DNA of 64,000 nt from Alphaproteobacteria bacterium (GCA_030740435.1 JASLXG010000066.1:24603-88602), one strand, 5' to 3'; positions 3,608-42,132 are shown, counted from the stretch's first letter. Made by a program: numbers and translations. The notes: generated by a model not told the origin, from the letters alone.

Positions 3608-5803
3608 GTGATGAACCAGCATGACCCGCTTGCGCTCCAGCACAATGGAACGGCTGACGTCGTGGCCCTGAAGGCCAACGTCGTGGCCGCCCTGGCCGGC
3701 CTCCTGGGCCAAGGACCCGACGTGGTGCGCTGCGCCGCCGCCCGGGCCCTGGGGGTAATGGGATCCGAGGCTGCCGTCGAGCCACTGGTGGCGGCCTTGC
3801 TGGACGAGGACGAGGACGTGCGCACGGACGCCGCCGGGGCGCTGGCCCGTCTCGGCGCTGCGGCGGCCGACAAGCAGCTTCTGGAAAATTTGCTCGGCGA
3901 TCCCTGCGCCGACGTCAAGGCGGCCGCCATCCGGGCCCTGGCGGGCTCAAGGAATTCCGACGTCGTGCCTTGGCTGCGCCGCCTGGCGGCTGGCCGTGAC
4001 GAGGAGATCGCCTGGGACGAAGAGGCCTTTTTCGACCAGGACTGGGACGATTGGGTGGACTTGCAGGTGGCCGCCATCGAGGCCCTGGCCGAAATGGGCG
4101 GCACCGAGGCGGTGCCCGATATCGTCGCCGCCCTCGATGACGAATACGCCCAGGACATCACCGAGACCGCCTTCAAGGCCCTGGCGCGCCTGGGCGACGA
4201 GGGACTGACTGCGCTCTCGATCTATGCCGAGGGCGGCGACCAGCGCCTGCGCCGGCGCGCCGCGGCGGTCATGGCTACGGCCGGCGGCGAGGTGGCCGAG
4301 GCGGCGGTGGAGCGCGCGCTCGGCGATCCCGAGCCGGCCGTGCGCCTGGCCGTGGCCGAGGTGCTGGCCGCCAAGGCGGCCGCCGATCCCCGGCTCGAGG
4401 CTTTGCTCGGCGATGCCGATCCCGGGCTGCGCGCCATCGCGGCCGTGCGCTGGGGGGAGCACCACCCGGCCGGCCTGAGGCCGCTTTTCGAGGACCGCTC
4501 GGCCGCCGTGCGAACGGCTGCTTTCGCCGCCCTGGCGGCAGCCCCGGCCACTCCCGACGACGAAGGCCTGGCAGATCTCTTGCACCGTAACTTGGCGGCG
4601 ACGCCGGACCAGGTGCCGGCGGCCGCGGCCCAGGCCCTGGCGGCGCACTTCGGACAGGCGGCGCTCGATGACTTGGCGGCGCTGCTGGCGGACCGGTCCC
4701 GTGGACCGGAAGTGCGGCTGGGCGCGTTGCGTGGCCTTGGCCGTCTGGGCCTGGCGGCGGTGCCCGCGCTGAGCGGGCAATTGGCCGATGACGAACGCCA
4801 GATCCGCCTCGAAGCCATGACGGCGCTGGCCGGCGTCGCCAAGGCCGAGAGCTGGCCCAACGCCGCCGGCGAGAGCCTGCTGGCGGCCTTGCGCGGCGAG
4901 ATGGTGGCTGAGCCCGAGCCGGAACCAGAGGCCGAACCCGAGCCGGAACCAGAGCCCGAGCCCGAGCCCGACGAATCAGCCTTCCCGGAATCGACGCTGG
5001 CGGCCATCCTGGGCCCCGAATCGCCGCTGCTGGAAGCCCATGGCGAGGTCCGCGGTGGTGCCGAACTGGGTCCCGATGATTTGGAATTCCTCGGCTTGGC
5101 CCGCGAGGCCCGGCAGGCCGGCGGCAAGAAGCGGGTGCCGCTGGTGCCCGATGTGGCGACCCACCAGGACGTGCCGCGCTTTGCCGCCAACCTGCTCGGC
5201 GATATCGCCCGTGACGAAGTGGCGTTGGCGCTGACGCAAGCTCTGCCGGCCGCCGACCGCGAGTTGCGCATCGAGGCGGCGCGATCGTTGGGCCGCATCG
5301 GTGAGGTGCTGGGCGAGCTGCCCGAGGGGGCATTCGAGGCCCTGGCGGCGCTCAGCCAGGATCGTGAGCGCGATCTCAAGCTGGCCGCCGTGCGCAGCCT
5401 GGGCCTGGCTCCGCTGGCGCTGGCTGAGCCCTTGCTGCGGGCCGGACTCGAGGACGAGGACGGTTTCGTGCGCCGCGAGGCGGTCTCCGCCCTGGCCCGG
5501 CTGGGCCCCGTCGACGGTGCCGTCGACGCCCTTTTGCACGACAACGAGCCCGGCGTGCGCCTGGCCGTGGCGGAGGCGCTTTGCGCCTCGGGCCGCGAGG
5601 ACGCCCTGGCCCTGCTGATGGATTTCGCCTTTGCCTTCGGCGGCGCCCAGCGCCGCGAGGCCGGGCGGCTGCTGCGCCGCCTCGACGCCCCGGCCGCCAA
5701 TGCCCGGCTGTTGCAGGTGCTCGAAGACGAAAGCCGCGAGCCGGTCTGGCAGGTGGCCATCGAGATGCTGGAGGAAATCAATGCTTCCGTGGCGGGTGGA
5801 TAG
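3608..5803 (+). CDS. HEAT-repeat (PBS-lyase-like) protein, 731 aa, no signal peptide
   Basis: It contains many repeats of the form AAxALGxxG...AVxPLxxxLxDxDxxVRxxAAxAL, typical of HEAT/PBS-lyase repeats, and is Ala/Leu-rich. It also has an acidic (EP)n linker. Confidence 0.65.
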   Translation: MMNQHDPLALQHNGTADVVALKANVVAALAGLLGQGPDVVRCAAARALGVMGSEAAVEPLVAALLDEDEDVRTDAAGALARLGAAAADKQLLENLLGDPCADVKAAAIRALAGSRNSDVVPWLRRLAAGRDEEIAWDEEAFFDQDWDDWVDLQVAAIEALAEMGGTEAVPDIVAALDDEYAQDITETAFKALARLGDEGLTALSIYAEGGDQRLRRRAAAVMATAGGEVAEAAVERALGDPEPAVRLAVAEVLAAKAAADPRLEALLGDADPGLRAIAAVRWGEHHPAGLRPLFEDRSAAVRTAAFAALAAAPATPDDEGLADLLHRNLAATPDQVPAAAAQALAAHFGQAALDDLAALLADRSRGPEVRLGALRGLGRLGLAAVPALSGQLADDERQIRLEAMTALAGVAKAESWPNAAGESLLAALRGEMVAEPEPEPEAEPEPEPEPEPEPDESAFPESTLAAILGPESPLLEAHGEVRGGAELGPDDLEFLGLAREARQAGGKKRVPLVPDVATHQDVPRFAANLLGDIARDEVALALTQALPAADRELRIEAARSLGRIGEVLGELPEGAFEALAALSQDRERDLKLAAVRSLGLAPLALAEPLLRAGLEDEDGFVRREAVSALARLGPVDGAVDALLHDNEPGVRLAVAEALCASGREDALALLMDFAFAFGGAQRREAGRLLRRLDAPAANARLLQVLEDESREPVWQVAIEMLEEINASVAGG
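4908..4972 (+). repeat. Tandem DNA repeat of gagcccgagccggaaccagag-like units encoding an (EP)n low-complexity linker (AEPEPEPEAEPEPEPEPEPEPDE) inside the HEAT-repeat protein
   Basis: The direct repeat is visible in the sequence at about 4908-4972. Confidence 0.6.
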
Positions 5804-5841
5804 GGAGGCAAACGAACGATGCCAATGAGGAGAGGATGACA

Positions 5842-6618
5842 ATGAAAGCGCAGACGAAATTAGGCTCTTTGGCGATTGCCGTGGCGGTCGCGGTGGCCTT
5901 GGCGGCACCCGCCCAGGCGGCTAAGAAGTACAAGGAAATCGACGTCCAGAACGGCGCCACCATCAGCGGGCGTGTGAGCTTCGAAGGCGCGCTCCCGGCC
6001 GACGCGGTGGAGAAGATCCTGATCACCAAGGATCCCAAGATCTGCGGCGAGGGTGAACGCGAAGTGGTCTGGATCGACGTCAAGGACGGCGCGCTGCGCG
6101 GCAGCTTCGTCTTCATCAACAAAATAAAAGAGGGCAAGAAGTGGGGCGCCCCGACCGGCGGCAAGTACATCATCGACCAGAAGGGTTGCCGCTTCAATCC
6201 CTGGGCCCAGGTGGTGCAGCCCGGCCCCATCACCATCCGCCACTCGGACCCGGGGGCGCTGCATAACATCAACACGCGCGAGATCATCGGCGTGGGCAAG
6301 AAGAAGTCGGTCAAGCGCACCATGTTCAACTTCGGCCAGCCCGAGCCCGGCGATATCGAACAGGCGCTGAAGCCCAGGCGCTCAGCCTTCATCGGCATCA
6401 ACTGCGAGGCCCACAACTTCATGTTCGGCTACATGATGGCACCCAAACACCCCTATGCCGTGGTGGTCGCGGACGACGGCTCGTTCAGCCTTGGCGACGT
6501 GCCGCCAGGCAAGTATTCGGTGCGTGCCTGGCATCCCCGGCTCGGCCTCAAGAAGACCAAGATCACGGTGGCGGCCGGAGCCAAGGCGGAAGCCAATTTC
6601 GCTTTCAAGGCCAAGTAG
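5842..6618 (+). CDS. Secreted hypothetical protein (258 aa) with a signal peptide and carboxypeptidase-regulatory-like beta-sandwich motifs
   Basis: Signal peptide MKAQTKLGSLAIAVAVAVALAAPAQA with an AxA cleavage site. The C-terminal motif DDGSFSLGDVPPGKYSVRAWH resembles a CarbopepD_reg domain. A His/Met/Cys-rich patch INCEAHNFMFGYMMAPKH is present. The RBS aggagagg precedes the ATG at 5842. Confidence 0.45.
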   Translation: MKAQTKLGSLAIAVAVAVALAAPAQAAKKYKEIDVQNGATISGRVSFEGALPADAVEKILITKDPKICGEGEREVVWIDVKDGALRGSFVFINKIKEGKKWGAPTGGKYIIDQKGCRFNPWAQVVQPGPITIRHSDPGALHNINTREIIGVGKKKSVKRTMFNFGQPEPGDIEQALKPRRSAFIGINCEAHNFMFGYMMAPKHPYAVVVADDGSFSLGDVPPGKYSVRAWHPRLGLKKTKITVAAGAKAEANFAFKAK

Positions 6619-6649: not shown

Positions 6650-8764
6650 GTGACGAAGGCGGGGCAGGGGCGAAGCAGGCAGGCGCTGCTGGCGCTGGCG
6701 GCGCTGACCCTGGCCGTTCTGGCTGCCTCGCCGGCCTGGGCCCTGGAGGCCAACGAATACCGCCAGGTCCTGGGCCTCGATTCGCGCAAAGTCGTTTGGT
6801 TCCTGGCCCAGATGCACCTTTTCTTCGGCGCCTTCGTGCTCGGCGTGCCGCTGTTCGCCGTGATCATCGAAATCGTCGGCTGGAAGAACGGCGACGAACG
6901 CTTCGACAAGCTGGCCTACGAATTCACCAGCCTGCTCAGCGTCGCCTATGCCACCACGGCGGCACTCGGCGGCATGCTGGCCTTCGCGCTGTTTACGCTT
7001 TACCCGACCTTCATGGGCTTCATGGCCGGAGCCTTCAAGGACGTCTTTTTCGTCTACGCCATCCTGTTTTTTGCCGAGACCTTCTGCCTCTATCTCTACT
7101 ACTACGGCTGGAAGGCGATGCAGGGGCGGGAGCCTTTCGGAAAAACCCTGCAACTGCTCTTCAAGACGGCCGGCGTGGTCATCGCAGGCCTTGGCCTGCT
7201 TTTCCTGTTCGGTCTTATCGGACCCGAGATGCGGGGCGATACCCGGGCCTTCATGGCGCTCTTGTACGTGCTGCCGCTGGGGGCCGGGATATATCTGCTG
7301 AAAGACGGCAAGTCGGGCCACATCCTGATCGGCATCCTGCTCAACCTGGCCGGCACCGGCATCATGCAGGCGGCCAACTCGATGGCCGGCTTCATGATGA
7401 GCCCGGCCGGCGTCAGCGAGGCCGGCGAGATCATCGGCAGCACCTGGCAGGTCTTCGAGAACGTGCTGGCCACGCCGGTGGCTATCCACCGCATGCTGGG
7501 CAATCTCGCCTTCGGCGGCCTGGTGGCGGGATCGTATGCCGCCGTCAAGTTCATCGGCGCCAAAACGGCCGAGGAAAAGGCGCACTACGACTGGATGGGC
7601 TACATCGCCAATTTCGTCGCCATCGCCGCCCTGATCCCGCTGCCCTTCGCCGGCTACTACCTGGGCCGCGAGGTCTATTCGACCTCGGCCGTCATGGGCA
7701 ACAACATGATGGGCGGCGATTTCTCCTGGACCTTCATCATCCAGGCCGTGCTGGTGGGCTCGCTGTTCTTGATCTCGAACTATTACCTCTGGTCCGGCAT
7801 GACCCGCATCCCGGGGTCCGAGCGCTATTACAAGTTCATCAAGTTCATCCTCTTTGCCCTGATCGTCTCCTTCGCCATCTGGCTGACGCCGCACAACCTG
7901 CCGCTGACGGGCTCGGAGGTGGGCGATATGGGCGGCAGCCAATACCACCCGACGCTCAAGTTCCTGGGCCTGATGCCGGCCAAGAACGCGGTGGTCAACC
8001 TGATCATCATCTCGACCTTCGTCAGCTTTCTTTTGTATCGCCGCGGCAACAAGGCCGATGCCGTGTCGATCCGGGCCCAGGGGCGGACGCCGATGATCGT
8101 CATCGGCCTGGCCGGCGCGGCGGCGCTCTTGATCGTTGGCCAATTCGCCTGGTCGCTGATGACCATGAGCCCGGCCGAGCTCGACCTGCCGGCCGACACG
8201 GCGCAGTACTTCCGCACCGTCGGTTGGCTCTTGATCGGCGAATGCGCCATGGTGGTGGTGGCCGTCGGCCTGGCGCTCACGGACCGCGGCAAGTGGGCCC
8301 AGGCGCTCTATCTCGCCTACACCGTCTTCAGCGTCGTGCTGTTCCTCGGCGTCTACGGCTTCGTGGTCATGGAGAAGGCCTCGCCCTTCCTGCGCGACGT
8401 TGCCGTGGCCCAGTTCCTGCAGCTCATCAGTGCCCTCATTCTGGTCTCCGCCATCGACCTATTCCTGTTCAAGGGCGCTCAGGAGATCGGCCCCCTGCAG
8501 TGGGGCAAGATGACCAACCGCAGCCAGTACGCGCTGCTGGCGCTGACCTTCGTCATCACCATGAACATGGGCCTGATGGGCTTCATCCGCTCAGGTTTGC
8601 GCGGCGACTGGCACATCTTCGGGGTCATGCGCGACACCTCGGAATGGTCCTACACGCCGACCAACGCCACCATGACCGAGATGGTCAGCCTGGCCGTGCT
8701 GGTCTTCATGGTGGGCGTCGCCTTCATGTTCTGGCTGGGCAGCATCGCTGCCAAGAAGGACTAG
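6650..8764 (+). CDS. Cytochrome bd oxidase subunit I (CydA)-like membrane protein, module 1, about 704 aa with a predicted cleavable signal peptide; no cydB partner
   Basis: The N-terminal region AQMHLFFGAFVLGVPLFAVIIEIVGW aligns with E. coli CydA [26 protein letters not shown], conserving the His19-equivalent. FFAETFCLYLYYYGW aligns with FFLESTFVGLFFFGW. VAIHRMLGNLAFGGLVAGSYAA matches the His186 helix. It is polytopic with extra C-terminal TM helices. The GTG start at 6650 follows the RBS ggagagg. The upstream ORF-track extension (from 6455) is Arg-rich nonsense. Confidence 0.7.
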   Translation: MTKAGQGRSRQALLALAALTLAVLAASPAWALEANEYRQVLGLDSRKVVWFLAQMHLFFGAFVLGVPLFAVIIEIVGWKNGDERFDKLAYEFTSLLSVAYATTAALGGMLAFALFTLYPTFMGFMAGAFKDVFFVYAILFFAETFCLYLYYYGWKAMQGREPFGKTLQLLFKTAGVVIAGLGLLFLFGLIGPEMRGDTRAFMALLYVLPLGAGIYLLKDGKSGHILIGILLNLAGTGIMQAANSMAGFMMSPAGVSEAGEIIGSTWQVFENVLATPVAIHRMLGNLAFGGLVAGSYAAVKFIGAKTAEEKAHYDWMGYIANFVAIAALIPLPFAGYYLGREVYSTSAVMGNNMMGGDFSWTFIIQAVLVGSLFLISNYYLWSGMTRIPGSERYYKFIKFILFALIVSFAIWLTPHNLPLTGSEVGDMGGSQYHPTLKFLGLMPAKNAVVNLIIISTFVSFLLYRRGNKADAVSIRAQGRTPMIVIGLAGAAALLIVGQFAWSLMTMSPAELDLPADTAQYFRTVGWLLIGECAMVVVAVGLALTDRGKWAQALYLAYTVFSVVLFLGVYGFVVMEKASPFLRDVAVAQFLQLISALILVSAIDLFLFKGAQEIGPLQWGKMTNRSQYALLALTFVITMNMGLMGFIRSGLRGDWHIFGVMRDTSEWSYTPTNATMTEMVSLAVLVFMVGVAFMFWLGSIAAKKD

Positions 8765-8768
8765 CCGC

Positions 8769-9746
8769 ATGACCGCCACCATGGCCAGGGTTGCGCTGTT
8801 CATGTTTCTGCTGCTGGGCCTTTTCCTGTGGGTCGGCAGCACCATCACGGCCATGACCGGCGGCGACAAGCGGCCCAAGGGCGGCGCCGTCGAGGTCAGC
8901 CCCGAGGGCGGCGAGGCCATCTTCTGGGGCAAGGGGCGCTGCTTCACCTGCCACAGCCTGGGCGGCCAAGGGAGCGCCGTGCGCTGCCCCAACCTGGGCC
9001 AATTCGGCGACAAGTTCGCGCTGCCCATCGGCGCCCGAGCGGCGGAGCGGGCCAAGGAACGCAGCGCCAAGACCGGCCAGACCTACACGACCACCGATTA
9101 CCTGGTGGAAAGCCTGGCCGAGCCTGGGGCCTACGTCGTCGAGGGCTACAAGAACGAGATGGCCATCGTCTACGCGCCGCCGATCTCGCTCAATCTTACC
9201 GAGATCAAGGCCGTGATCGCCTACTTGCAGAGCCAGGGCGGCGACGTCGACATGGAGGCGCTGAACAAGCCAAGCCCGATCAGCCAGAAGTTCTTCGCCC
9301 GCATCAATGCGGCCTCGGCCGCCGGTGGTGGCGATCCCGGTGCCGGCGAGGTGGTCTTCGAGGACAACTGCGCCGAATGCCATGACCTCGGTGGTGAAGA
9401 CGAGGAGCTGCCGGGTCCGGCGCTTTCGGGCGTCGGCAAGAAGGGCCTCAAGTTCCTGGCCGATGCCATCCTCAGGCCGGCCAAGGAGATCACCAAGGGT
9501 TTCGAGACGTATCAAGCGGTGATGAAGGACGGCCGCAAGCACGTTGGCCTGAAAAGCCGTGACGAGGGCGGCGAGGTCGACATCACCAAGGCCAACGGCG
9601 ACGTCGAGACGCTGGCCAAGGCCGAGATCAAGGAGCTCAAGGAAGACAAGGGCAAATCGATCATGCCCGAAGACCTGATCGAGGCCCTGACGGTCAAGGA
9701 CTATCAGGACGTCCTCTCGTTCCTGCTGTTGCAAAAGGGCGAGTAA
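8769..9746 (+). CDS. Membrane-anchored di-haem cytochrome c (module 1)
   Basis: N-terminal TM helix (VALFMFLLLGLFLWVG). Two CxxCH motifs (CFTCH, CAECH). The second domain carries GPALSGVGKKG...ILRP, a class I cytochrome c-like motif. Confidence 0.75.
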   Translation: MTATMARVALFMFLLLGLFLWVGSTITAMTGGDKRPKGGAVEVSPEGGEAIFWGKGRCFTCHSLGGQGSAVRCPNLGQFGDKFALPIGARAAERAKERSAKTGQTYTTTDYLVESLAEPGAYVVEGYKNEMAIVYAPPISLNLTEIKAVIAYLQSQGGDVDMEALNKPSPISQKFFARINAASAAGGGDPGAGEVVFEDNCAECHDLGGEDEELPGPALSGVGKKGLKFLADAILRPAKEITKGFETYQAVMKDGRKHVGLKSRDEGGEVDITKANGDVETLAKAEIKELKEDKGKSIMPEDLIEALTVKDYQDVLSFLLLQKGE

Positions 9747-9752
9747 GGCACC

Positions 9753-10718
9753 ATGGCAAAGCTCAGAATCAGTCGCTTCTGGTGGGTCGTGATCACCATT
9801 GTGGCGGTCTATGCCTTCGTCAAATGGGGCATTCCGGCGCTCTCGCGGGAAATCACGGCGCTGCCCTTCCCGCTTTCGGTGCCGGGCACCTTGATGTTCA
9901 TCTACATCGTGCTGACGCTGGTGGCGCTGTTTCTCTTCATCACCTTTTCGGACGACTACCTGGAAGAATTCAGCCGCCCCATCAAGCGTCTGCTGCGCGG
10001 CGAATTCGGCGCCATCCCGCGCCTCGTGGTGCTGCTGGCGGTGCCGTTGATCGTCGGCTGGCAGGTTTACGACGTGACCGTGCCCAAGGTCGAGCTGCCC
10101 TCGACGCTGCGCATCCAGCACCCCTCGTCGAACTTCCCCAAGAAGTTCGAGAGCATGAACAATCCCTTCGCCAATCCCGATGAAGCCACGGTCGCGGCCT
10201 TCATCGAGCAGGCCAAGGACGAGGAGATCGAGTTCATCGCCCAAGTCCAGGGCGACATCGAGGCCTGGCGCGAAGAGATCGATCCAGACAACCCCTACGA
10301 TTTCATCCCCACCAAGCCCTGGCGTGCCTTTCTCGCCCAGCTCGAAGAGGGCGAGGTCGAGCCGGCCGTGGCCAAGGCGGCGCTGGTGGAGAAGAACCTC
10401 TTCGAGGGGCGCGCCCTATATGCCATGAACTGCCGGCCCTGCCACGGCGACAGCGTCGCCGGCGACGGCCCGCTGGCCGACGGCTTCAAGCTCAGGCCGA
10501 TCAACTTCACCGACAACGGCACCATCGAGACCATCGTCGAGGGCTACACCTTCTGGCGCGTGAGCAACGGCGGCCCCGGCCTGCCCACCGAGGCCACACC
10601 CTGGGATTCGGCCATGCCCGAGTGGAAGGTCAGCCTGACCGAGGCCGAGCGCTGGAAGATCATCCTGGCCGAATACGACCTGGCCCAGAAGACGCCGCGC
10701 ATCCCGGAGAGCCATTGA
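9753..10718 (+). CDS. Membrane-bound mono-haem cytochrome c (module 1)
   Basis: Two to three N-terminal TM helices. A single CRPCHGD haem motif sits in a C-terminal soluble domain carrying the G[YF]xFWR...GGPGLP motif. It is a paralog of the gene at 16716-17483. Confidence 0.7.
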   Translation: MAKLRISRFWWVVITIVAVYAFVKWGIPALSREITALPFPLSVPGTLMFIYIVLTLVALFLFITFSDDYLEEFSRPIKRLLRGEFGAIPRLVVLLAVPLIVGWQVYDVTVPKVELPSTLRIQHPSSNFPKKFESMNNPFANPDEATVAAFIEQAKDEEIEFIAQVQGDIEAWREEIDPDNPYDFIPTKPWRAFLAQLEEGEVEPAVAKAALVEKNLFEGRALYAMNCRPCHGDSVAGDGPLADGFKLRPINFTDNGTIETIVEGYTFWRVSNGGPGLPTEATPWDSAMPEWKVSLTEAERWKIILAEYDLAQKTPRIPESH

Positions 10719-12337
10719 TGGTTTCGCGCATCACCATGGCGCTGGGCTTGGGCCTTCTCGCTTTCGCGGTCTCGCCGGCCGAGGCCGCCGACGTCTCGCA
10801 GGATCCCCAGCCCGAGTTCACGGACGAGCTGCGGGCTGAAGGCCGGCAGATCTACTTCCAGCGCTGCAGCTTCTGCCACGGCCTGCTGGGCGACGGCGAG
10901 GGACCGGCGGCGCCCTTCATGGACCCCCGGCCGCGCGACTTCACGCTGGGCACCTTCAAGTTCCGCACCACCCAGTCGGGCGAGCTGCCGCAAGATTCAG
11001 ACATCTTCCGCACCGTCAGCCGCGGCCTCAGCGGCACCGCCATGCAGGCCTTCGACGACGAGCGCATCAAGAACGGCCTCAGCGAGCACCAGCGCTGGGC
11101 CGTGATCGCCTACATCCAGACCTTCGCCCAGGAGTTCGACGATGAGGAACTGGACCCGGTCAAGACCGGCAAGGTGGTGGCGCTGCCCAAGGACCGCCCG
11201 GCCTATGGCGCCGAAATCGTGGCCAAAGGCAAAGAAATCTTTCTCAAGGCCAAGTGCTGGGAATGCCACGGCAAGTCGGGCCGCGGCGACGGCCAAAAAT
11301 CCTTCGACCGCAAGGACGACTGGGGCTTTCCCATCCGCATCCGCAACGTCACCCATCCCTGGAAGATCAAGGCCGGCGACCGCGTCGAGGACATCTACAT
11401 GCGTTTCTCGACCGGCATCAGCGGCACGCCCATGCCGTCTTTCGTCAAGGCCCTGAGCGAGAGCGAACGCTGGCAGCTGGCCAACTTCATCAAGTCTTTG
11501 CAGATCCAGCGCACCAGCCACCAGGTGCTGAAGGCGCTGCGCCTGGAGGGCGAGCTGCCCGAGAGCCCGGATGATCCGCGCTGGAAGCAAGCCGAGCCCA
11601 TGGACGTGATTCTTACCGGGCAGGCCGTGGCGCCGCCGCGCTGGCAAAGCCCGTCGGTCGAGATGGTGACGCTGAGGGCCGTCTTCAATGACAACGAAAT
11701 CGCTTTCCGGCTGACTTGGGACGACCCCTTCAAGGACACCAAGCACGACGCCGGGCAGGAACTCGACGTCAAGGAGATCAGCGCCAGCGGCATCTACAGT
11801 TCATACGTCGACGTCAACGAGTTGGCGGTGCGCAAGCTGGAGACCTATCGCGACGCCGTGGCGCTGCAGTTTCCCGTGAAGCCCACCGAGGGCACCAGGC
11901 GGCCGCACTTCCTGCGCGGCTCGGCCTCGGATCCGGTGCATCTCTGGCTTTGGAAAGCCGATGAGGGCGCTGTCGAGGAAGCCGTCGGCCGGGGTTGGCG
12001 CCAAGGCCTGAGGCCGCAGCCCGAGGAGCAGCAGCAGGTCGCCGCCAAGGCCGCCTGGGACCAGGGGCGCTGGCAACTGGTGATGAAACGGCCCTTGCGC
12101 ACCGAGGACAAGAACGACGTCCAGTTCGAGGCCGGCCGCTTCATTCCGCTGTCGCTCAATGCCTGGGACGGCTCCAACGGCGAACACGGTTTGATCATGA
12201 GCCTCTCTAGTTGGTATTACGTCTTCCTCGAAGCGCCGACGCCGATCAGCGTTTACCTCTATACCATCCTGGCGATCTTGATCACGGGCGGTCTGGGTTT
12301 CTGGTTGATGAGAAAAGCTGAAGCGGAAGACGCCTAG
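10718..12337 (+). CDS. Di-haem cytochrome c fused to an EB_dh/DOMON-like haem-binding domain, with a C-terminal TM anchor (module 1)
   Basis: The ATG at 10718 overlaps the upstream stop (tgATG). Signal peptide MVSRITMALGLGLLAFAVSPAEA. Haem motifs CSFCHG and CWECHG. The C-terminal half (WDDPFKDTKHD...ALQFPVK...DPVHLWLWKAD...WQLVMKRPL) resembles the ethylbenzene-dehydrogenase gamma / DOMON haem b domain. Terminal helix YLYTILAILITGGLGFWLM. Confidence 0.65.
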   Translation: MVSRITMALGLGLLAFAVSPAEAADVSQDPQPEFTDELRAEGRQIYFQRCSFCHGLLGDGEGPAAPFMDPRPRDFTLGTFKFRTTQSGELPQDSDIFRTVSRGLSGTAMQAFDDERIKNGLSEHQRWAVIAYIQTFAQEFDDEELDPVKTGKVVALPKDRPAYGAEIVAKGKEIFLKAKCWECHGKSGRGDGQKSFDRKDDWGFPIRIRNVTHPWKIKAGDRVEDIYMRFSTGISGTPMPSFVKALSESERWQLANFIKSLQIQRTSHQVLKALRLEGELPESPDDPRWKQAEPMDVILTGQAVAPPRWQSPSVEMVTLRAVFNDNEIAFRLTWDDPFKDTKHDAGQELDVKEISASGIYSSYVDVNELAVRKLETYRDAVALQFPVKPTEGTRRPHFLRGSASDPVHLWLWKADEGAVEEAVGRGWRQGLRPQPEEQQQVAAKAAWDQGRWQLVMKRPLRTEDKNDVQFEAGRFIPLSLNAWDGSNGEHGLIMSLSSWYYVFLEAPTPISVYLYTILAILITGGLGFWLMRKAEAEDA

Positions 12338-12391
12338 GACGCGCTAGAGTGCGGTCCATCCGTATGGGGAGAGAAGTTTGGGAGAGCGAGT

Positions 12392-13054
12392 ATGAGAATA
12401 ATTTTTGCCTCATCTTTGGCGCTGGCGCTGAGCCTGGCCGCAAGTGGTCCGGCCCGGGCTGATGCGGCGGCCGGCAAGGCCGCCTTCGCGGCCCAGAAAT
12501 GCGAGGGCTGCCATTACACCGAAGGGCCGGCCAGGGAGAAGTCGATCGACGATCAGTTGGCCAAGAAGGGGCCTGAGCTGTGGTACGCCGGTTCCAAGTT
12601 CCAGGCGCCCTGGCTCGAGGCCTGGCTGCAAAAACCCGATGCCATCCGGCCGCTGAAGTACAACACGCTCGAACAAGAGAACCCCGGCGACCATCCCAAG
12701 CTTTCGGGCGGCGATGCCAAGAACGTCGCCGCTTTCCTCATGAGCCTGACCTCGGACGCTGTCAAGGCGGGCAAGGTCAAGGCCAAGAGGAACGCCAAGG
12801 GGCGCCTGATTTTCTCCAAGAAAATGCCCTGTTCCGGTTGCCACTCCTCCATCGGCCGCAAGAAGAAAGTCGGCGGCGGGCGTTCCGGCCCGACCCTGGT
12901 CGGGGCCGGCCAGCGCCTCAACCCGGACTGGATCCTGGCCTATCTCAAGACGCCCGACGTCTTCAAGCCGATCAAGGCCATGCCCGTGTTCGCCGGTATC
13001 CTGGGCGACAAGGACATGCTCAACCTGGCCCGCCACGTGGCCAGCTTCAAGTAG
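12392..13054 (+). CDS. Di-haem cytochrome c with two CcoO/NorC-like haem domains (module 1 only)
   Basis: Signal peptide. Haem motifs CEGCH and CSGCH. Each is followed by a GPxL...G....W...LxxP......MP block resembling the cbb3 CcoO / NorC haem domain. Confidence 0.7.
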   Translation: MRIIFASSLALALSLAASGPARADAAAGKAAFAAQKCEGCHYTEGPAREKSIDDQLAKKGPELWYAGSKFQAPWLEAWLQKPDAIRPLKYNTLEQENPGDHPKLSGGDAKNVAAFLMSLTSDAVKAGKVKAKRNAKGRLIFSKKMPCSGCHSSIGRKKKVGGGRSGPTLVGAGQRLNPDWILAYLKTPDVFKPIKAMPVFAGILGDKDMLNLARHVASFK

Positions 13055-13074: not shown

Positions 13075-13443
13075 ATGAAAAGATTGACCACCGCCGCTGC
13101 CTTCTGCACCCTGGCGTTTGCCCTGGCCGTTCCTTCGGCCCAGGCCGCCGATGCCAAGAAGGTCTACAACTTCTATTGCGCCCAGTGCCACGGCACCGCC
13201 GGCAAAGGCAAGGGACCCAACGTCACCAAGGACTTTCCCGTCAGCCCGCGCGACTTCACCAATGCCGCCGAGATGGACAAGCTCTCGGACGCCGACATGA
13301 AGAACGTGATTCTGGATGGCGGTCCGGCGGCCTCCAAGTCGCCCATGATGCCGCCCTGGTCCAAGACCCTGAAGGGCGACGAGGTTGACGCTCTGGTCGG
13401 CTACCTGCGCAAGTTCTGCGGCTGCAAGGGCAAGCAAGGCTAG
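13075..13443 (+). CDS. Periplasmic mono-haem cytochrome c, 122 aa (module 1 only)
   Basis: The RBS gggagga precedes the ATG at 13075. Signal peptide MKRLTTAAAFCTLAFALAVPSAQA. CAQCHG motif. Confidence 0.7.
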   Translation: MKRLTTAAAFCTLAFALAVPSAQAADAKKVYNFYCAQCHGTAGKGKGPNVTKDFPVSPRDFTNAAEMDKLSDADMKNVILDGGPAASKSPMMPPWSKTLKGDEVDALVGYLRKFCGCKGKQG

Positions 13444-13723: not shown

Positions 13724-13846
13724 ATGACGATGACTGAAAACAACGGTGCAACAGGCAGTGGATCAGCCAACGCCTGGGCCGGTCCGGCCCTCTTTACGGT
13801 CGTTGCCGTGGTCATGCTGGTCTTCTTCTATTGGTTCCTGTCCTAG
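13724..13846 (+). CDS. Candidate 40-aa single-TM peptide (MTMTENNGATGSGSANAWAGPALFTVVAVVMLVFFYWFLS)
   Basis: Hand-translated ORF on the cluster strand upstream of cydA-like 2. The RBS is weak. Confidence 0.25.
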   Translation: MTMTENNGATGSGSANAWAGPALFTVVAVVMLVFFYWFLS

Positions 13847-13897
13847 AGTCAAGGCAGCCTGCAGGGGGGCACAAATGAATAATCCGAGGGATTGCTC

Positions 13898-14014
13898 ATG
13901 AAGGACTACGTGGTGCCCTTTGTGGCGGCGTTCGTGGTGTGGGGTCTCCTCTTTCTCGGTCTCGACGTGGTGATCATGAACGCCCAGGGACTGAACCTGA
14001 TCTATCAGCCGTAG
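13898..14014 (+). CDS. Candidate 38-aa single-TM peptide (MKDYVVPFVAAFVVWGLLFLGLDVVIMNAQGLNLIYQP), 10 nt upstream of cydA-like 2
   Basis: Hand-translated ORF. The RBS gaggg lies 7 nt upstream of the ATG. In size and position it looks like a CydX-like small subunit. Confidence 0.3.
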   Translation: MKDYVVPFVAAFVVWGLLFLGLDVVIMNAQGLNLIYQP

Positions 14015-14023
14015 GGGGGACTG

Positions 14024-15880
14024 GTGACGCACAGCAAGGTTTTGACCGCCTGGCGCCCCTGGGTGCTGGCGGCTCTGGTGGCGACGCTGTTGCTGGCCCT
14101 GGTGCCGCTGCTGGGCAGCGCCCTGGATATCGCGTCGCCGGCCCTGGCGGCCGAAGGCGAGGCGGCGGCGGCGGCAAGCGGCGAGCAGGCGGCGGCCCCG
14201 GCCGGCCCGACCATCGCGCCGCCCAAACTGAAGAGCACCGACTATCCGGTTGTGGCCGGCGTCAACGGACGCATCTTCGTCTGGCTGGCGGCGCAATTGC
14301 ACCTCTGGTTCGCGGCCTTCGTGCTGGCCGTGCCGATCTTCGTCTTCATCATCGAAGCCATCGGCATGTACAGCCGCGACCAACGCTACGACAACATGGC
14401 CTACGAGTTCATCAAGGTCAGCATCACCGCCTATTCCCTGACCGCCATCCTGGGTGGCCTGTTGGCCATCGGCCTGATCGTTTTCTACCCGCACCTCTTC
14501 CAGTACATGTCCGGCGTCTTCAAGGAATCGATGGTCTGGTATGCGGTGCTGTTCTTCGCCGAAAGCGCCTGCCTTTACATCTATTACTACGGCTGGCACT
14601 GGCTGCAGGGCGGCTTCCGCAAGTGGGTTCATCTGACGCTGGGGCTGGTGCTGAATGGCGTCGGCACGACGCTGATGTTCCTGGCCAACGCCTGGCTCAC
14701 CTTCCAGATGAGCCCGGCCGGCGTCGATGCCGCCGGCCTCTATTCCGGCGACGTCTGGGCCGCCATCCACAATCCCTTGTGGAACCCCATCAACCTGCAC
14801 CGCATGATCGCCAACGTCGCCTACGGCGGCTCGGTGGTCGGCGCCTATGCCGCCTTCCGGTTTCTCTCGTCGCGCACGGCCGAGCTCAGGGCGCATTACG
14901 ACTGGATGGGCTACACCGCCAACTTCATCGCCATCAGCGCGCTCTTGCCGCTGCCCTTCGCCGGCTACTACCTGACGGCCGAGATCTACGCCTACAGCCA
15001 GCAGATGGGCATCACCCTGATGGGCGGCGTCTTCGCCTGGCTCTTCATCATCCAGGCGGTGCTGATCGGCACGCTGTTCCTCTCGGCCAACTATTATCTC
15101 TGGTGCGGCATGGGGCGCAGCGACGGGGCGCCGCGTTACAACCCCTATATCAAGTACATAGCCTTCGGTCTGGTGGCCTCGTTCCTGGTCTGGTTCACGC
15201 CCCACACCCTGGTGCTGACGAACGAGGAACTGAAGGCTCTGGGCGGGCCCTACCACAAGTACCTGGGGCCGCTGGGCATCATGCCGGCCAAGAACACGGC
15301 CGTGAACTACATGATCATCCTGACGGCGCTGAGTTTCCTGATTTACCGCCGCGCCAACAAGATCCCGACGGTAAGCTGGGTCAAGATCGGCAATGCCGTG
15401 CAGGTGGCCATGTTCACGGCCGCCGTCGTCAACATCCTTATCCTGGGCGTCTACCACGGCTACTTCACCAACACCGTCTACAAGGTGGCGAGCTCGATCC
15501 CCCAGGTGTTGACGACGCTGGTGGTGATCTTCGTCAGTACGCTCATCGACGTCTTCATGTACCGCGGCGCCAAGGACGTGGCGCCGCTGCATTGGGGCCG
15601 ATTGCCCGAACGCGCCCAGTACGCGCTCTTCCTGCTGGCCGTCTCGTTCACCTGGCTGATGGGCCTGATGGGCTACATCCGCTCGGGCATCCGCCAGCAC
15701 TGGCACGTGGTCGGCATCTTCCGCGACAACTCGGCCGACGCCTTCACGCCGACCCTGGCGGGCGGTGCCAATATCGTCTCTGTGGGGGTCATCATCTTCC
15801 TGGTGATGGTCATCTTCGTCTTCTGGGTCAGCCAGATCAGCGGCCGCAAGACCGAAGTGGCCGGATACTGGAGGACCTAG
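14024..15880 (+). CDS. Cytochrome bd subunit I (CydA)-like membrane protein, module 2, 618 aa with a signal peptide and an Ala-rich periplasmic N-terminal extension; no cydB
   Basis: AAQLHLWFAAFVLAVPIFVFIIEAIGM (His19-equivalent). FFAESACLYIYYYGW. PINLHRMIANVAYGGSVVGAYAA (His186-equivalent). About 55% identical to the module 1 paralog over conserved blocks. GTG start per the ORF track. Confidence 0.7.
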   Translation: MTHSKVLTAWRPWVLAALVATLLLALVPLLGSALDIASPALAAEGEAAAAASGEQAAAPAGPTIAPPKLKSTDYPVVAGVNGRIFVWLAAQLHLWFAAFVLAVPIFVFIIEAIGMYSRDQRYDNMAYEFIKVSITAYSLTAILGGLLAIGLIVFYPHLFQYMSGVFKESMVWYAVLFFAESACLYIYYYGWHWLQGGFRKWVHLTLGLVLNGVGTTLMFLANAWLTFQMSPAGVDAAGLYSGDVWAAIHNPLWNPINLHRMIANVAYGGSVVGAYAAFRFLSSRTAELRAHYDWMGYTANFIAISALLPLPFAGYYLTAEIYAYSQQMGITLMGGVFAWLFIIQAVLIGTLFLSANYYLWCGMGRSDGAPRYNPYIKYIAFGLVASFLVWFTPHTLVLTNEELKALGGPYHKYLGPLGIMPAKNTAVNYMIILTALSFLIYRRANKIPTVSWVKIGNAVQVAMFTAAVVNILILGVYHGYFTNTVYKVASSIPQVLTTLVVIFVSTLIDVFMYRGAKDVAPLHWGRLPERAQYALFLLAVSFTWLMGLMGYIRSGIRQHWHVVGIFRDNSADAFTPTLAGGANIVSVGVIIFLVMVIFVFWVSQISGRKTEVAGYWRT

Positions 15881-15883
15881 GCG

Positions 15884-16702
15884 ATGATGAACTTCCTCAA
15901 GGTGGCCCTCTTCTCGCTGGTCGTCATCGGCTTTTTCGCGGGCTATTCCAACTGGGGCATCCCGCAGATCGAGCCGGCGGCGCCGCCGGTGGAAGAAGTG
16001 CTCGATCTGGGCGCCATGACCATGGACGACTTCATCGCGCTGGGCGGCAAGATCTACAACGGCAAGGGCACCTGCACGCTCTGCCACAATGCCGTCGGCG
16101 GCCGGGCGCCCATGCTCGATACCGCCGCCGGCCTGGTTGCCGAACGCCTCAAGGACGCCCGCTACAAGGGCGAGGCCAGCGACGCCGAGGGCTATCTGCT
16201 GGAATCGCTGGTCAATCCCTCGGCCTTCGTGGTGGCGGGCTTCGGCAAGAAGGGGACAGCCGATGCCGAAAGCCCGATGCCCGACGTCTCGGGCGGCTCG
16301 GTGGGCTTGAGCGAGGTCGAACTGGCGGCCGTGGTGGCCTTCCTGCAGGATCTCGGCGGCACCGATGTGACGGTGGAGATCCCCTCGGGCGCCCAGGCCT
16401 CCGACGAAAGCGGCGACGAGGAGGGCGAGCCCCGGGCGGCCTACGCCTCGATCGAGGAACTGATCGCCGAGCAGTCCTGCGGCGCCTGCCACAAGGTGGC
16501 CGGCGAGGAAGGCGACGTTGGTCCGGACCTCAACGGCATCGGCGCCAAGTACGATCGCGACTACCTGCGCCGTTCCATCCTCGATCCCAATGCCGACATC
16601 GGCCAGGGCTTCGAGGCCGACACCATGCCGGCGGAATACGGCACCACCCTCTATGCCCAGGAACTCGAAATGCTGATCGACTACCTGGCCAAACTGAAAT
16701 GA
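15884..16702 (+). CDS. Membrane-anchored di-haem cytochrome c (module 2)
   Basis: N-terminal TM helix. Haem motifs CTLCH and CGACH. GPDLNGIGAKYDRDYLRRSILDP motif. It is a paralog of the gene at 8769-9746. Confidence 0.75.
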   Translation: MMNFLKVALFSLVVIGFFAGYSNWGIPQIEPAAPPVEEVLDLGAMTMDDFIALGGKIYNGKGTCTLCHNAVGGRAPMLDTAAGLVAERLKDARYKGEASDAEGYLLESLVNPSAFVVAGFGKKGTADAESPMPDVSGGSVGLSEVELAAVVAFLQDLGGTDVTVEIPSGAQASDESGDEEGEPRAAYASIEELIAEQSCGACHKVAGEEGDVGPDLNGIGAKYDRDYLRRSILDPNADIGQGFEADTMPAEYGTTLYAQELEMLIDYLAKLK

Positions 16703-16715
16703 GCAGGGGCGCGGC

Positions 16716-17483
16716 ATGAAAATTCCCAGGCTCCTGCTGTCGGTCATCACCGTCCTGGTCTTCTACGCCGCCTTCGAGGTGGTCTTCGGGCTGATCCTCG
16801 GGCAGCCCATCCCGGCCAGCCTGATGACCATGTACATGTTCTTCGTGGTTGCCGGCGTCTTCATGACGTTTACCTTCACCGAGGAAGGCGGCCGCGAGAT
16901 GGTGGCGCCGATCAAGGCGCTGGTCGAGGATCCCTCCAAACGCATGGTGCGCAACGTCGTCTTCGTCATCGTGCCGCTGCTGGCCGGTGGCCTGACGTAT
17001 TGGCAGATGCAGCCCTCCTTCGAGGCGCCGCTGGAGCTGCGTTCGATCCATCCGGCACCGCCCTCGAGCGCCAAGATCTACGGCAAGCGCTACGATCTGC
17101 TGACGCTGGAGAACCCGTTGCGCAAGTTCGAGAAGGAGGATCCCGAGAAGTTCCGCGAATTGGTGGCGGCGGGCGCCACGGTCTACATCGAGAACTGCCA
17201 GTACTGCCACGGCGACAAGCTCGATGGCCAGGGGCCCTACGCCCAGGGCCTCAATCCGGTGCCGCTCAACTTCCAGGACATCGGCACCATCGCCCAGCTT
17301 CAGGAATCCTACCTCTTTTGGCGCATTGCCACGGGCGGGCCGGGCCTGCCCAGCGAAGCCTCGCCCTGGCTCTCGTCGATGCCGGTGTGGCAGAGCTTCC
17401 TCAAGGAAGAAGAAATCTGGCAGGTCATCCTTTTCCTTTACGACTACACCGGCCACCGGCCGCGCTCATGGGAGCATGAATGA
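16716..17483 (+). CDS. Membrane-bound mono-haem cytochrome c (module 2)
   Basis: Three N-terminal TM helices. CQYCHGD motif. ...YLFWRIATGGPGLPSEASPW... It is a paralog of the gene at 9753-10718. Confidence 0.7.
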   Translation: MKIPRLLLSVITVLVFYAAFEVVFGLILGQPIPASLMTMYMFFVVAGVFMTFTFTEEGGREMVAPIKALVEDPSKRMVRNVVFVIVPLLAGGLTYWQMQPSFEAPLELRSIHPAPPSSAKIYGKRYDLLTLENPLRKFEKEDPEKFRELVAAGATVYIENCQYCHGDKLDGQGPYAQGLNPVPLNFQDIGTIAQLQESYLFWRIATGGPGLPSEASPWLSSMPVWQSFLKEEEIWQVILFLYDYTGHRPRSWEHE

Positions 17484-19024: not shown

Positions 19025-19260
19025 CGCCGAACCCGGCGGCTGACGACGAGGAGTTACGGGACGAGGAACCGGTCCGCGGCGTCAAGACGCGTATGATCGG
19101 CGCCGGCTTGATCTTTCTCGGCGTTCTCGACAGTCTGCTCAGTTGGCGGGGCGGTTTCGAGCCCAGCCTGTTTCATTGGTTTCTGATTGCCGCCGGCATA
19201 CTGGTTTTTGCCATCGGCGCGATCCGGCAGAGGCGGGACGCCGGGTCTCCGTCACCCTAG
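19021..19260 (+). CDS. Small two-TM membrane protein (79 aa), translationally coupled to the preceding cytochrome
   Basis: Its ATG overlaps the cytochrome stop (gcATGA). Two hydrophobic helices (MIGAGLIFLGVLDSLL and WFLIAAGILVFAIGAI). Confidence 0.4.
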   Translation: MTPNPAADDEELRDEEPVRGVKTRMIGAGLIFLGVLDSLLSWRGGFEPSLFHWFLIAAGILVFAIGAIRQRRDAGSPSP

Positions 19261-19270
19261 GAGAGTGTCC

Positions 19271-34681: not shown

Positions 34682-35455
34682 CTAATGCACGTCGGCCCAG
34701 ACCCGGCGCTTGGTCAGGTAGAAGAGCCCGGTCAGGATGATGAGAAAGATCATCACCTTGAAGCCCAGCCGCTTGCGCGCCTCGAGGGTGGGCTCGGCCG
34801 CCCACATCAGGAAGTGGACCACGTCGTGGGACTGCTGCGCCACGGTCGCCTTGGTGCCGTCGGCGTATTCCACGCCCTCGTCGAAGATGGGCTCGGGCAT
34901 GGCGATCTGGTGCCCCGGGAAATAGGGGTTGTAGGCCATGCCCTCGGCCAATTCCACGCCCTCCGGGGCTTCGCGGTAGCCCGAGAGCAGCGAATAGATG
35001 TAGTCGTGAAAGCCCGGTCGGGCCTTGACGATGAGCGAAAGGTCCGGCGGCAGGGCGCCGTTGTTGGCCGACCGGGCGGCGTTGGCGTTGGGGTAGGGAT
35101 CGAGGAAATAGTCCGAAAGCCGGGCCGGCCGGTCGAACATCTCGCCCTCGTCGTTGGGCCCGTCCTGGACCTCGAACTCGGCGGCAAAGGCCTTGGCCTG
35201 GTCCTGGCTCAGCCCGATCTCGGTGAGATTCCGAAAGGCGATGTATTCCAGGCCGTGGCAGCCGGCGCAGACCTCCTGGTAGACCTGCAGCCCGCGCTGC
35301 AGCGCCGCCCGGTCGAAAGTGCCGAAGAAGCCTTCGAAGGTCCAGCCCGGCGATTTGGGTTTTTCGACCACGCCCGAGGCCTGGGCCGGGGCGGCGGAAA
35401 GCGCCAGGGCGGCCAGAGCCGCCAGCAGCGTGGCCTTCATGCCGAGCGCCTTCAT
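34682..35455 (-). CDS. petC: Cytochrome c1 of the bc1 complex
   Basis: Signal peptide. CAGCHG haem motif. C-terminal TM anchor. It is the last gene of the petABC operon. Confidence 0.85.
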
Positions 35456-36705: not shown

Positions 36706-36714
36706 GATCCGCCC

Positions 36715-37266
36715 CTAACCCAGCTTGACGGTGGTGTCGTCGAGGAACTCATATTTCGGCACCTCGAGGTTGGTCGGTGCCGGCCCCAGGCGGATGCGGC
36801 CCGAGGTGTCGTAGTGCGAGCCGTGGCAGGGACAGAACCAGCCCCCGAATTTGCCCTTGGGCTCGGTGTCCTTCTGGCCCAGCGGCACGCAGCCGAGATG
36901 GGTGCAGACGCCGACCATGACCAGCCACTGGGGTTTCTGCACGCGCTCGGCATCGCTTTCGGGATGCGGCAGCTCGGCGCCGTCGTCGGCCCGGGCCTGG
37001 GCGATTTCCTTCTCCGTGCGGTAGCGCACGAAAGCCGGCTTGCCGCGCCACTTGACGGTGATGGCCTGGCCCGGCTCGAGGGGCGAGAGATCGACCTCGA
37101 TCGAGGCCAGCGCCAAGACGTCGGCGGTGGGATTCATCTGGTCGATGAAGGGCCAGGTGGCCAGGGCGGTGCCGACGGCGGTGAAGGCGCCGGTCGCTAT
37201 ATAGAGGAAATCACGCCGGGTGGTGCCCTCGGCGGGATCGGAATCGGGTGTTGTGGTCGACATCAA
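36715..37266 (-). CDS. petA: Ubiquinol-cytochrome c reductase Rieske iron-sulfur subunit
   Basis: Tat-like N-terminus RRDFLY. Rieske boxes CTHLGC and CPCHGS. Confidence 0.9.

Positions 37267-41042: not shown

Positions 41043-42132
<1,090 letters not shown>

Follow-up and report, generated by a model that had tools for sequence, protein, structure and literature searches.

In EbdC (2IVF chain C) and Kuenenia NxrC (7B04 chain C), a haem b is held by a Met/Lys pair within a beta-sandwich that matches the Pfam family EB_dh (PF09459); both proteins are soluble, measure about 210-320 aa and are bound to an Fe-S beta subunit. A membrane-anchored relative has been described in nitrite oxidisers: alt_NxrC_2 of N. 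moscoviensis (NITMOv2_3640, 66.8 kDa) is listed as "1 SP, 1 TMH, diheme cyt. c" (PMC6606698, Table 2), and its gene is clustered with two membrane cytochromes c and bd-like_3 in a cluster that is duplicated downstream and conserved in Nitrospina and anammox bacteria (PMC6606698; PMC3578206). The alt_NxrC proteins have been proposed as anchors of the nitrite oxidoreductase, NXR (PMC6606698). The same architecture is found in the "periplasmic cytochrome b" of the TO_1 terminal-oxidase cluster of Ca. Manganitrophus (10.1101/2021.11.15.468770), and the ebdC homologue of the OR-N2 operons is the same component (supplement of 10.1101/2021.01.16.426971). Here we describe two proteins of this kind, T1 (10718-12337, 539 aa) and T2 (17480-19024, 514 aa), encoded in a 64,000-nucleotide stretch of DNA from an Alphaproteobacteria bacterium (GCA_030740435.1 JASLXG010000066.1:24603-88602; this whole stretch is called the window, and positions are counted from its first letter). 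The two genes lie in a single run of genes of about 23 kb, all on the + strand and ending at 23637, in which the order bd-like subunit, cytochrome c, cytochrome c, fusion occurs twice. We find that T1 and T2 are members of a known, still uncharacterised family, that their architecture is already published and is not rare, and that the Met/Lys pair of EbdC is replaced in both.

The sequence-only reading of this DNA had placed in both proteins, in this order, a signal peptide, a two-haem c-type domain, an EB_dh/DOMON domain and a single terminal transmembrane helix. Translation and Pfam bear out this order, and all parts are present in both modules. T1 begins with a Sec-type signal peptide of residues 1-23 (ending ..SPAEA and followed by AD; 10718-10786), continues with a dihaem c domain (10817-11500) whose haem c sites are CSFCH at residue 50 and CWECH at residue 180 (CxxCH at 10865 and 11255), and ends with the EB_dh domain (11525-12229) and a hydrophobic helix of residues 508-531 (12239-12310). 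T2, a paralogue with 36% identity to T1 over its full length, likewise has a Sec-type signal peptide, a dihaem c domain (17582-18232) with CLACH at residue 46 and CSECH at residue 165 (17615 and 17972), an EB_dh domain (18263-18919) and a helix at about residues 484-507 (18929-19000). The only four Cys of each protein sit in its two CxxCH motifs, and in both proteins an invariant Met follows each motif (in T1 Met109 at 11042 and Met239 at 11432). The T1 gene starts with the ATG at 10718, which overlaps the stop codon of the upstream cytochrome c gene (ATGA); an alternative GTG start at 10622 would traverse the 3' end of that gene and was rejected. As read from their sequences, then, T1 and T2 are exported, membrane-anchored proteins with two c-haem sites and an EbdC-fold domain.

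The assignment of that domain is confirmed at the level of both profile and predicted structure. PF09459 matches T1 with E 1e-23 (85 bits, residues 287-491) and T2 with E 1.7e-22 (81.1 bits), in each case against a gathering cutoff of 33.3, and the motifs WDDP, ALQFP and WLWKAD are found in T1. In AlphaFold2 (AF2) models with a predicted local distance difference test score (pLDDT) of 80.9 for T1 and 84.7 for T2, the beta-sandwich half is matched by Foldseek to EbdC (2ivf_C) with E 3.3e-14 and TM-score 0.78 for T1 and E 5.5e-15 and TM-score 0.81 for T2; it also matches NxrC (7b04_C, E about 1e-12) and, more weakly, CBM9, DOMON and cellobiose-dehydrogenase cytochrome domains (4qi3_A). T1 and T2 thus share the beta-sandwich haem-b fold and the PF09459 match with EbdC and NxrC, at 20-22% identity in structural alignment, whereas EbdC and NxrC have neither c haems nor a transmembrane helix. 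The dihaem half is matched to Kustc0457 of Kuenenia stuttgartiensis (6h5l_B), the dihaem cytochrome c partner of the HAO-like Kustc0458, with TM-score 0.83 for T1 and 0.86 for T2, and the first 230 residues are homologous to it (phmmer E 1.5e-53 and 6.6e-40; 36-40% identity). Kustc0457 is soluble and free-standing and sits on an octahaem enzyme, whereas in T1 and T2 the same domain is joined to EB_dh and a membrane anchor.

Membership in the gamma-subunit family of the type II dimethyl sulfoxide (DMSO) reductases is a separate matter. T1 and T2 score 110.8 and 102.5 bits with TIGR03477 (DMSO reductase type II gamma), under its cutoff of 169.85, and 41 and 50 bits with NF042980 (EbdC equivalog), whose cutoff is 400. 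No type II alpha (Mo) or beta (4 Fe-S) subunit is present among the genes of the locus or the other scanned open reading frames (ORFs) of the window. On score, gene context and ligands, a classification of T1 and T2 as gamma subunits of type II DMSO reductases was rejected.

Such fusions had been called rare in the sequence-only reading, and this did not hold. Homologue searches return 1804 significant matches for T1 and 1147 for T2, and the best 120 of the 1804 and the best 120 of the 1147 all have the same Pfam content. An exhaustive search with a hidden Markov model (HMM) of the EB_dh and transmembrane part finds 1699 clusters at 50% identity, 810 of them at E <= 1e-10 and 179 at E <= 1e-30; the best 150 of these 1699 clusters are mostly proteins of 480-640 aa with two CxxCH and a C-terminal helix, and some are longer, at 700-810 aa, and have three CxxCH. 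Among species-representative genomes, a scan yields at least 586 confirmed loci in Alpha-, Gamma- and Betaproteobacteria and other phyla. Nearly all of these genomes are labelled as metagenome-assembled genomes, many of them, by isolate names, from Saanich Inlet, the Arabian Sea and the eastern tropical North Pacific. GenBank entries identical to the window's own proteins, from an uncultured alphaproteobacterial metagenome-assembled genome, are annotated "ethylbenzene dehydrogenase-related protein" and "c-type cytochrome". Two variants of the architecture deserve a mention in their own right: a database protein of 945 aa (P0440) joins cytochrome c-EB_dh to Usp-PCP_red, and a distant locus (L085, 4532-7724) has one bd-like gene followed by two different cytochrome c-EB_dh fusions in tandem (539 and 495 aa), a hint that a single membrane subunit may be served by two fusion proteins.

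We now consider the residues that could bind a haem b. Ligand columns were counted over 121 sequences per orthologue group, with Met108 and Lys201 of EbdC as reference positions. In the T1 group the Met108 column holds Arg400 (11915) and the Lys201 column holds Met494 (12197), each in 121/121 sequences, and His397 (11906; 118/121) and His490 (12185; 119/121) are further conserved. The T2 group has Met371 (18590) in the Met108 column in 106/121 sequences and His469 (18884) in the Lys201 column in 114/121, and all 121 of its members have Tyr at the position of His397 in T1. The sequence-only reading had named Met, Lys and His as the axial ligands to identify, and would have been refuted by a lack of any significant EB_dh/DOMON match or of a conserved ligand pair. 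Neither refutation came about: the EB_dh match is strong, and there is a conserved candidate set in each orthologue group; what is not found in either is the canonical Met/Lys pair. Anammox members do keep that pair (motif PYFAMG...QKS), whereas T1 has Arg/Met (with His397) and T2 has Met/His. The T1-type motif, PHF[LF]RG...EHGLxMS, also occurs in Nitrospinae and in Beta-, Delta- and Lambdaproteobacteria; the T2-type motif is PYFLMG...SHT, a long Nitrospinota paralogue has PHFLNG...KS, and a distant 805-aa form has PLYRHG...KHT. From these columns we tentatively infer that Met371 and His469 would be the haem b ligands of T2. Met/His ligation of haem b is known in the same fold superfamily, in the cytochrome domain of cellobiose dehydrogenase. 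For T1, the pattern points faintly to Met494 plus His397 as the most likely pair, and haem b may thereby be tuned differently in the two paralogues.

Each fusion adjoins a bd-like membrane subunit, as the sequence-only reading had it. The first of these CydA homologues, bdl1 (6650-8764, about 704 aa), has an uncertain start codon; contigs with identical neighbouring genes annotate a 704-aa product. The second, bdl2, is at 14024-15880 (618 aa). Only the N-terminal part of each is matched by PF01654 (E 2.6e-10 for bdl1 and 2.3e-14 for bdl2), with matches confined to profile positions 3-117 and 3-231 of 418. Aligned to solved CydA chains (9r2g_A and 5doq_A), bdl2 has equivalents of His19, His186 and Glu107, with Glu99 changed to Tyr. 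Retention of these three residues together with absence of the quinol-binding loop is the mark of the OR-N family, and the Tyr/Glu pattern of both bd-like proteins is as tabulated for OR-N2 (Table S6, supplement of 10.1101/2021.01.16.426971), an agreement with a tabulated pattern that leaves both OR-N1 and OR-N2 as candidate subfamilies. Between bdl1 and T1 lie c1a (8769-9746), a membrane-anchored dihaem cytochrome c with two CxxCH and one N-terminal hydrophobic helix, and c1b (9753-10718), a membrane monohaem cytochrome c with one CxxCH and three hydrophobic segments; the counterparts in module 2 are c2a (15884-16702, membrane-anchored, dihaem) and c2b (16716-17483, membrane, monohaem). Judged from sequence, the best reading of the two modules is the "OR-N" or "TO_1" type, that is, a CydA-like protein without the quinol loop, two membrane cytochromes c and a fusion protein.

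Comparison with other phyla links both modules to counterparts in Nitrospinota and anammox bacteria. A profile made from 10 diverse fusions, all of which have Lys where EbdC has Lys201, retrieves proteins of Nitrospinota, Ca. Brocadia, Jettenia, Loosdrechtia, Rokubacteria and Methylomirabilales, and it retrieves T1-type alphaproteobacterial proteins at comparable scores (about 610-630 bits) and with identical Pfam content. By BLASTP, T1 has 41% identity to a Nitrospinota 602-aa fusion, T2 has 36% to a Nitrospinota 506-aa fusion, and both have 35-36% to an anammox fusion; bdl1 is 60% identical to a Nitrospinota 713-aa bd-like protein and bdl2 63% to a 626-aa one, as against 41% between bdl1 and bdl2. 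On the Nitrospinota contig the two modules stand in tandem. This clean pairwise orthology with the two Nitrospinota modules shows the two modules to be ancient paralogues inherited together and not recent copies. Two OR-N CydA paralogues have been proposed to form one CydAA'-like enzyme (PMC10839748, PMC12342949), and the co-inheritance of the T1 and T2 modules fits this published two-paralogue idea.

The immediate surroundings of the fusion are similarly constant. T2 is downstream of T1 in 45/46 loci with enough sequence, a bd-like gene is upstream of T1 in 60/60 related loci, and a molybdoenzyme (Mo) subunit of the Aio/Idr type is upstream of T1 in 48 of 51, where its identities fall into two bands, one near 84% and the other near 55%. 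Distant family members, in contrast, are found beside a bd-like gene and cytochromes c, and the flanks read there, roughly 8 kb to each side, contain no Aio/Idr-like gene. On the anammox contig the same module (in the order beta-sandwich, bd-like, c, c, fusion, c, c, Usp-PCP_red) adjoins nxrC, nxrB, a NarJ-like gene and nxrA, the NxrC of this locus being a soluble protein separate from the fusion. Because the bd-like partner is kept where the flanks read contain no Aio/Idr-like gene, and because the pairing in nitrite oxidisers is with NXR, we conclude that the fusion belongs to the bd-like module and not to any one molybdoenzyme. The likeness to alt_NxrC_2 and its Nitrospina and anammox counterparts is one of domain order (signal peptide, dihaem c, NxrC/EbdC-like domain, C-terminal transmembrane helix, with NITMOv2_3640 compared by its description), of sequence, which is homologous over the full length to Nitrospinota and anammox members, and of gene context, since two membrane cytochromes c accompany a bd-like CydA homologue and the module is duplicated nearby. 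The differences are in the hosts, which here are uncultured marine Alphaproteobacteria and other Proteobacteria rather than nitrite oxidisers or anammox bacteria, and in the enzyme alongside: the alt_NxrC systems have NXR, whereas the T1/T2 locus is without NXR and has as fixed neighbours an Aio/Idr-like Mo enzyme and two cytochrome c peroxidases.

Drawing on these observations, we consider it reasonably probable that T1 and T2 form the periplasm-facing, membrane-anchored tri-haem electron wire of two paralogous bd-like modules, each fusion with a predicted complement of two haems c and one haem b. In such a scheme the fusion would be exported by Sec and held by its C-terminal helix against the bd-like subunit, and the Kustc0457-like dihaem c domain would exchange electrons with periplasmic partners. 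Candidate partners would be the soluble cytochromes c of module 1, cytochrome c reduced by bc1 and, ultimately, the Aio/Idr-like molybdoenzyme set. Electrons would then pass from the two c haems to the EB_dh haem b and on to the haem b558-equivalent site of the bd-like subunit, so that the EB_dh relay would take the place of the missing quinol site, and the bd-like subunit would reduce O2. As donors, two features of the window are plausible: the two soluble cytochromes c of module 1, namely c1c (12392-13054, dihaem, with a signal peptide and two CxxCH) and c1d (13075-13443, monohaem, 122 aa), and the bc1 complex. The latter is encoded by a complete operon (Rieske protein with Tat signal, cytochrome b and cytochrome c1) at 34682-37266 on the - strand, 16 kb downstream of the bd-like modules.

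The large subunit of the neighbouring molybdoenzyme (849-3521, 890 aa; Pfam Rieske_3, Molybdopterin and Molydop_binding) narrowly exceeds the cutoff of the arsenite-oxidase equivalog TIGR02693 (400.9 bits vs 359) and is distant from solved AioA chains (about 270 bits); its Rieske small subunit (227-835, AioB/IdrB-like, with a Tat signal; Pfam Rieske and TAT_signal) scores 115 bits with TIGR02694 against a cutoff of 95.65. At the very edge of the window, 3-206 encodes the 3' end of a CCP_MauG dihaem cytochrome c peroxidase (CCP; idrP-like), cut by the window edge and recognised by tblastn with the CCP_MauG protein of distant locus L084 (55% identity, E 4e-19). A peroxidase gene is upstream of the Rieske gene in 7/7 genome loci with at least 270 nt there, with both identity bands represented. 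In L088 and L089, which have an identical Mo protein, two CCP genes are directly upstream of the Rieske gene (7114-12673), and the order is sensor kinase, sigma-54 regulator, peroxidase, peroxidase, Rieske, Mo subunit, HEAT, beta-sandwich, bd-like. Genes for two cytochrome c peroxidases thus stand with those for a Rieske subunit and an AioA-like Mo subunit, the idrABP1P2 combination by which iodate reductase has been told apart from arsenite oxidase (PMC8692401). In oxygen-deficient zones, marine "AioA-like" proteins have been reinterpreted as IdrA (PMC8692401, PMC9477243).

An assignment of the Mo enzyme as arsenite oxidase, which its passing of the TIGR cutoffs would suggest, was weakened once the upstream peroxidase genes were found, and given the idrABP1P2 content, public databases may be mistaken in labelling this abundant marine protein "arsenate reductase (azurin)/arsenite oxidase". 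With the idrABP1P2 systems of Pseudomonas sp. SCT and Denitromonas sp. IR-12 the set shares, by gene content, the AioA-like and Rieske subunits and two peroxidases, as well as a marine low-oxygen distribution. The surroundings of idrABP1P2 are poorly conserved in the genomes analysed so far (PMC8692401), whereas here the order P-P-B-A is followed by two bd-like modules in 48/51 loci. A literature search that covered few subscription-journal papers returned no mention of idrA together with cytochrome bd. In distant locus L084, for its part, a bd-like module stands about 6 kb from two peroxidase genes, which are followed by a truncated gene.

Several points weigh against the electron-wire scheme. 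In a family-wide survey of ligands (144 cluster representatives, aligned with hmmalign to the domain HMM), ligand-capable residues are present on both sides in just 59 of the 144, and in many clusters the EbdC-Lys201 column is Arg, Gly, Ser or Ala. Because ligand positions vary so widely across the family, some members may bind no haem b or may use other ligands. The association of His397 with loss of Met at position 400 is modest (Fisher p = 0.02, 144 representatives), so that His397 stays a candidate, and the ligand loops are among the lower-confidence parts of the AF2 models (pLDDT 65-70). To our knowledge, nobody has yet purified a fusion protein of this family or an OR-N bd-like oxidase. 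Finally, electrons could flow in the reverse direction; published proposals cover both O2 reduction and reverse flow to quinone.

The explanation that survives best beside the electron wire is built on this last point: the bd-like module would draw from the quinol pool, and T1 and T2 would pass electrons outwards to the Idr-like Mo enzyme and the peroxidases, much as in an alternative complex III. This possibility was raised for the same bd-like proteins by Lücker et al. (PMC3578206), and for the alt_NxrC_2/bd-like_3 cluster Mundinger et al. suggested that electrons run in reverse (PMC6606698). The adjacent Mo enzyme, with its idrABP1P2-type content, belongs to a type that published models treat as a reductase fed by cytochrome c (PMC8692401), and many of the related loci come from oxygen-deficient waters. 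However, the bd-like proteins are without the quinol-site region, since their N-terminal part alone aligns with CydA; they keep the His19 and Glu107 equivalents on the haem d/b595 side of the oxygen-reducing site; and for the reduction of cytochrome c the window already encodes an ordinary bc1 complex. We therefore judge the outward wiring unlikely.

It is also conceivable that T1 and T2 act as genuine gamma subunits or as anchors, binding the molybdoenzyme directly and fastening it to the membrane. Their EB_dh fold is, after all, the gamma-subunit fold of type II DMSO reductases, the Mo enzyme is upstream in nearly all loci, the same module abuts nxrCBA in anammox bacteria, and alt_NxrC proteins have been proposed to anchor NXR (PMC6606698). 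Yet the TIGR03477 scores fall below cutoff, the type II alpha and beta subunits searched for among the locus genes and scanned window ORFs are missing, and the Mo enzyme is Aio/Idr-like, without a beta subunit on which an EB_dh domain could dock. In Aio and Idr enzymes, electrons leave via the Rieske subunit for a soluble cytochrome c (PMC10071563). The bd-like partner is present in distant family members whose flanks, as far as read, contain no Aio/Idr-like gene, and the anammox locus has its own soluble NxrC. Direct docking is accordingly a decidedly unlikely reading. The same evidence divides the functional idea of the sequence-only reading, that the fusion bridges electrons between the molybdoenzyme side and the membrane bd-like subunit: a bridge is plausible, with the Mo enzyme so regularly upstream, whereas a direct gamma role falls with the type of the enzyme, its lack of a beta subunit and the distant members. 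That idea was reasonable in outline and wrong in its premises.

Very improbable, lastly, is a haem-free EB_dh domain, in T1 at least, that would serve as a structural or ligand-binding beta-sandwich like CBM9 and leave only the c haems redox-active: it would account for the Arg at the EbdC-Met108 position in all 121 T1 orthologues, for the high variability of the ligand columns across the family and for the haem-free CBM9 modules as next structural neighbours, but against it stand the 98-100% conservation of Met494, His397 and His490 in T1 and the 88-94% conservation of Met371 and His469 in T2, the exact Met/Lys pair of anammox members, and the Met/His haem b ligation of the cellobiose dehydrogenase domain, to which there is a weak Foldseek match.

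Returning to T1 and T2 as electron wires, a more ambitious version can be formulated for the locus as a whole. The unit of about 23 kb might be a dedicated, undescribed respiratory island in which the two bd-like subunits form one heteromeric oxidase that is wired via T1 and T2 to iodine-oxyanion (or arsenite) chemistry; this is a tentative proposal, and on balance we doubt it. Its parts would be the two peroxidases, the Idr/Aio-like molybdoenzyme, two non-redundant bd-like modules, each with a tri-haem EB_dh subunit of its own and with differing haem-b ligands, and tetrapyrrole-maturation genes, and its hosts would be abundant uncultured proteobacteria, many of them from low-oxygen sea water. 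Two versions are possible. In one, the oxidase would consume the O2 or H2O2 that iodate reduction is proposed to release. In the other, by analogy with NXR in nitrite oxidisers, the molybdoenzyme would act as a dehydrogenase that feeds a high-potential oxidase; if true, the system would be a candidate enzyme system for biological iodide oxidation.

The remaining genes of the run complete the picture of the locus. Upstream of bdl1 are a HEAT/PBS-lyase-like repeat protein (3608-5803; HEAT_2 E 1.8e-54) and a periplasmic beta-sandwich protein (5836-6618; CarboxypepD_reg-like, with a signal peptide, from translation and weak Pfam matches). In the latter, a Cys-x2-His...Met motif (CEAHNFMFGYMM) is similar to a type 1 copper site, and homologues of its gene adjoin bd-like genes in alphaproteobacterial and other proteobacterial, anammox, Nitrospinota and other loci. 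Downstream of T2 follow a Usp and PCP_red protein (19187-20944, true start probably downstream of 19260; Pfam Usp E 2.2e-29, PCP_red E 1.2e-22), a radical SAM/SPASM protein with a C-terminal PCP_red domain (20958-22250, AhbD/NirJ2-like by Pfam; TIGR04545 293 bits and TIGR04055 289 bits, both under cutoffs of 500) and an FAD amine-oxidase-like protein (22165-23637; Pfam Amino_oxidase E 1.2e-48). The Usp-PCP_red, radical SAM, HEAT/PBS-lyase-like and amine-oxidase-like genes accompany bd-like modules also in distant loci (L084, L085 and L086) where no Aio/Idr-like gene is seen, and together these four genes resemble a set for maturing a tetrapyrrole (modified haem?) of the bd-like oxidase.

Small hydrophobic ORFs make up the rest. 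Two single-transmembrane ORFs precede bdl2, one of 40 aa (13724-13846; tblastn match in 62/83 related loci, with similar-sized ORFs at the same place in L001 and L002) and one of 38 aa (13898-14014; 64/83), and a two-transmembrane ORF of 79 aa (19021-19260; 50/83, with ORFs of 67-69 aa at the same place in L001 and L002) overlaps the T2 stop codon. Their positions are thus kept in 50-64 of the 83 related loci; they are without Pfam annotation and are possibly CydX-like small subunits of the bd-like complexes. Two long ORFs over module 2, at 13939-16719 (+, 926 aa) and 13763-16750 (-, 995 aa), are Arg/Gly/Ala-rich, have no Pfam match and were rejected as high-GC artefacts; the real genes beneath them, at 13.8-16.7 kb, are the 618-aa bd-like protein and two cytochromes c. 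Such spurious ORFs could mislead gene calling based on ORF length. Further along the window, a set resembling an aerotolerance operon (a MoxR AAA+ ATPase with a DUF58 and a BatA/DUF4159 protein) is encoded at 41041-45796 (+) and appears unrelated to T1 and T2.

OR-N bd-like oxidases are the proposed main terminal oxidases of nitrite- and manganese-oxidising bacteria, with none characterised, and their EB_dh-type partner has so far been read mainly as a nitrite oxidoreductase anchor. The presence of the same two-module set in hundreds of proteobacterial genomes without NXR argues that the fusion is part of the bd-like module and not of NXR. New here are the conserved non-canonical ligand sets, the ancient, co-inherited paralogy of the modules, and their constant pairing with an idrABP1P2-like set in abundant marine bacteria of low-oxygen waters. 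For mutagenesis, the conserved change of ligands (Met/Lys, Met/His, His?/Met) offers concrete targets. The idrABP1P2-like association is the most interesting lead of the three: modules fixed beside such a set in bacteria of oxygen-deficient zones bear on whether marine "AioA-like" proteins carry out arsenite oxidation or iodate reduction, and on whether their chemistry involves an oxygen intermediate.

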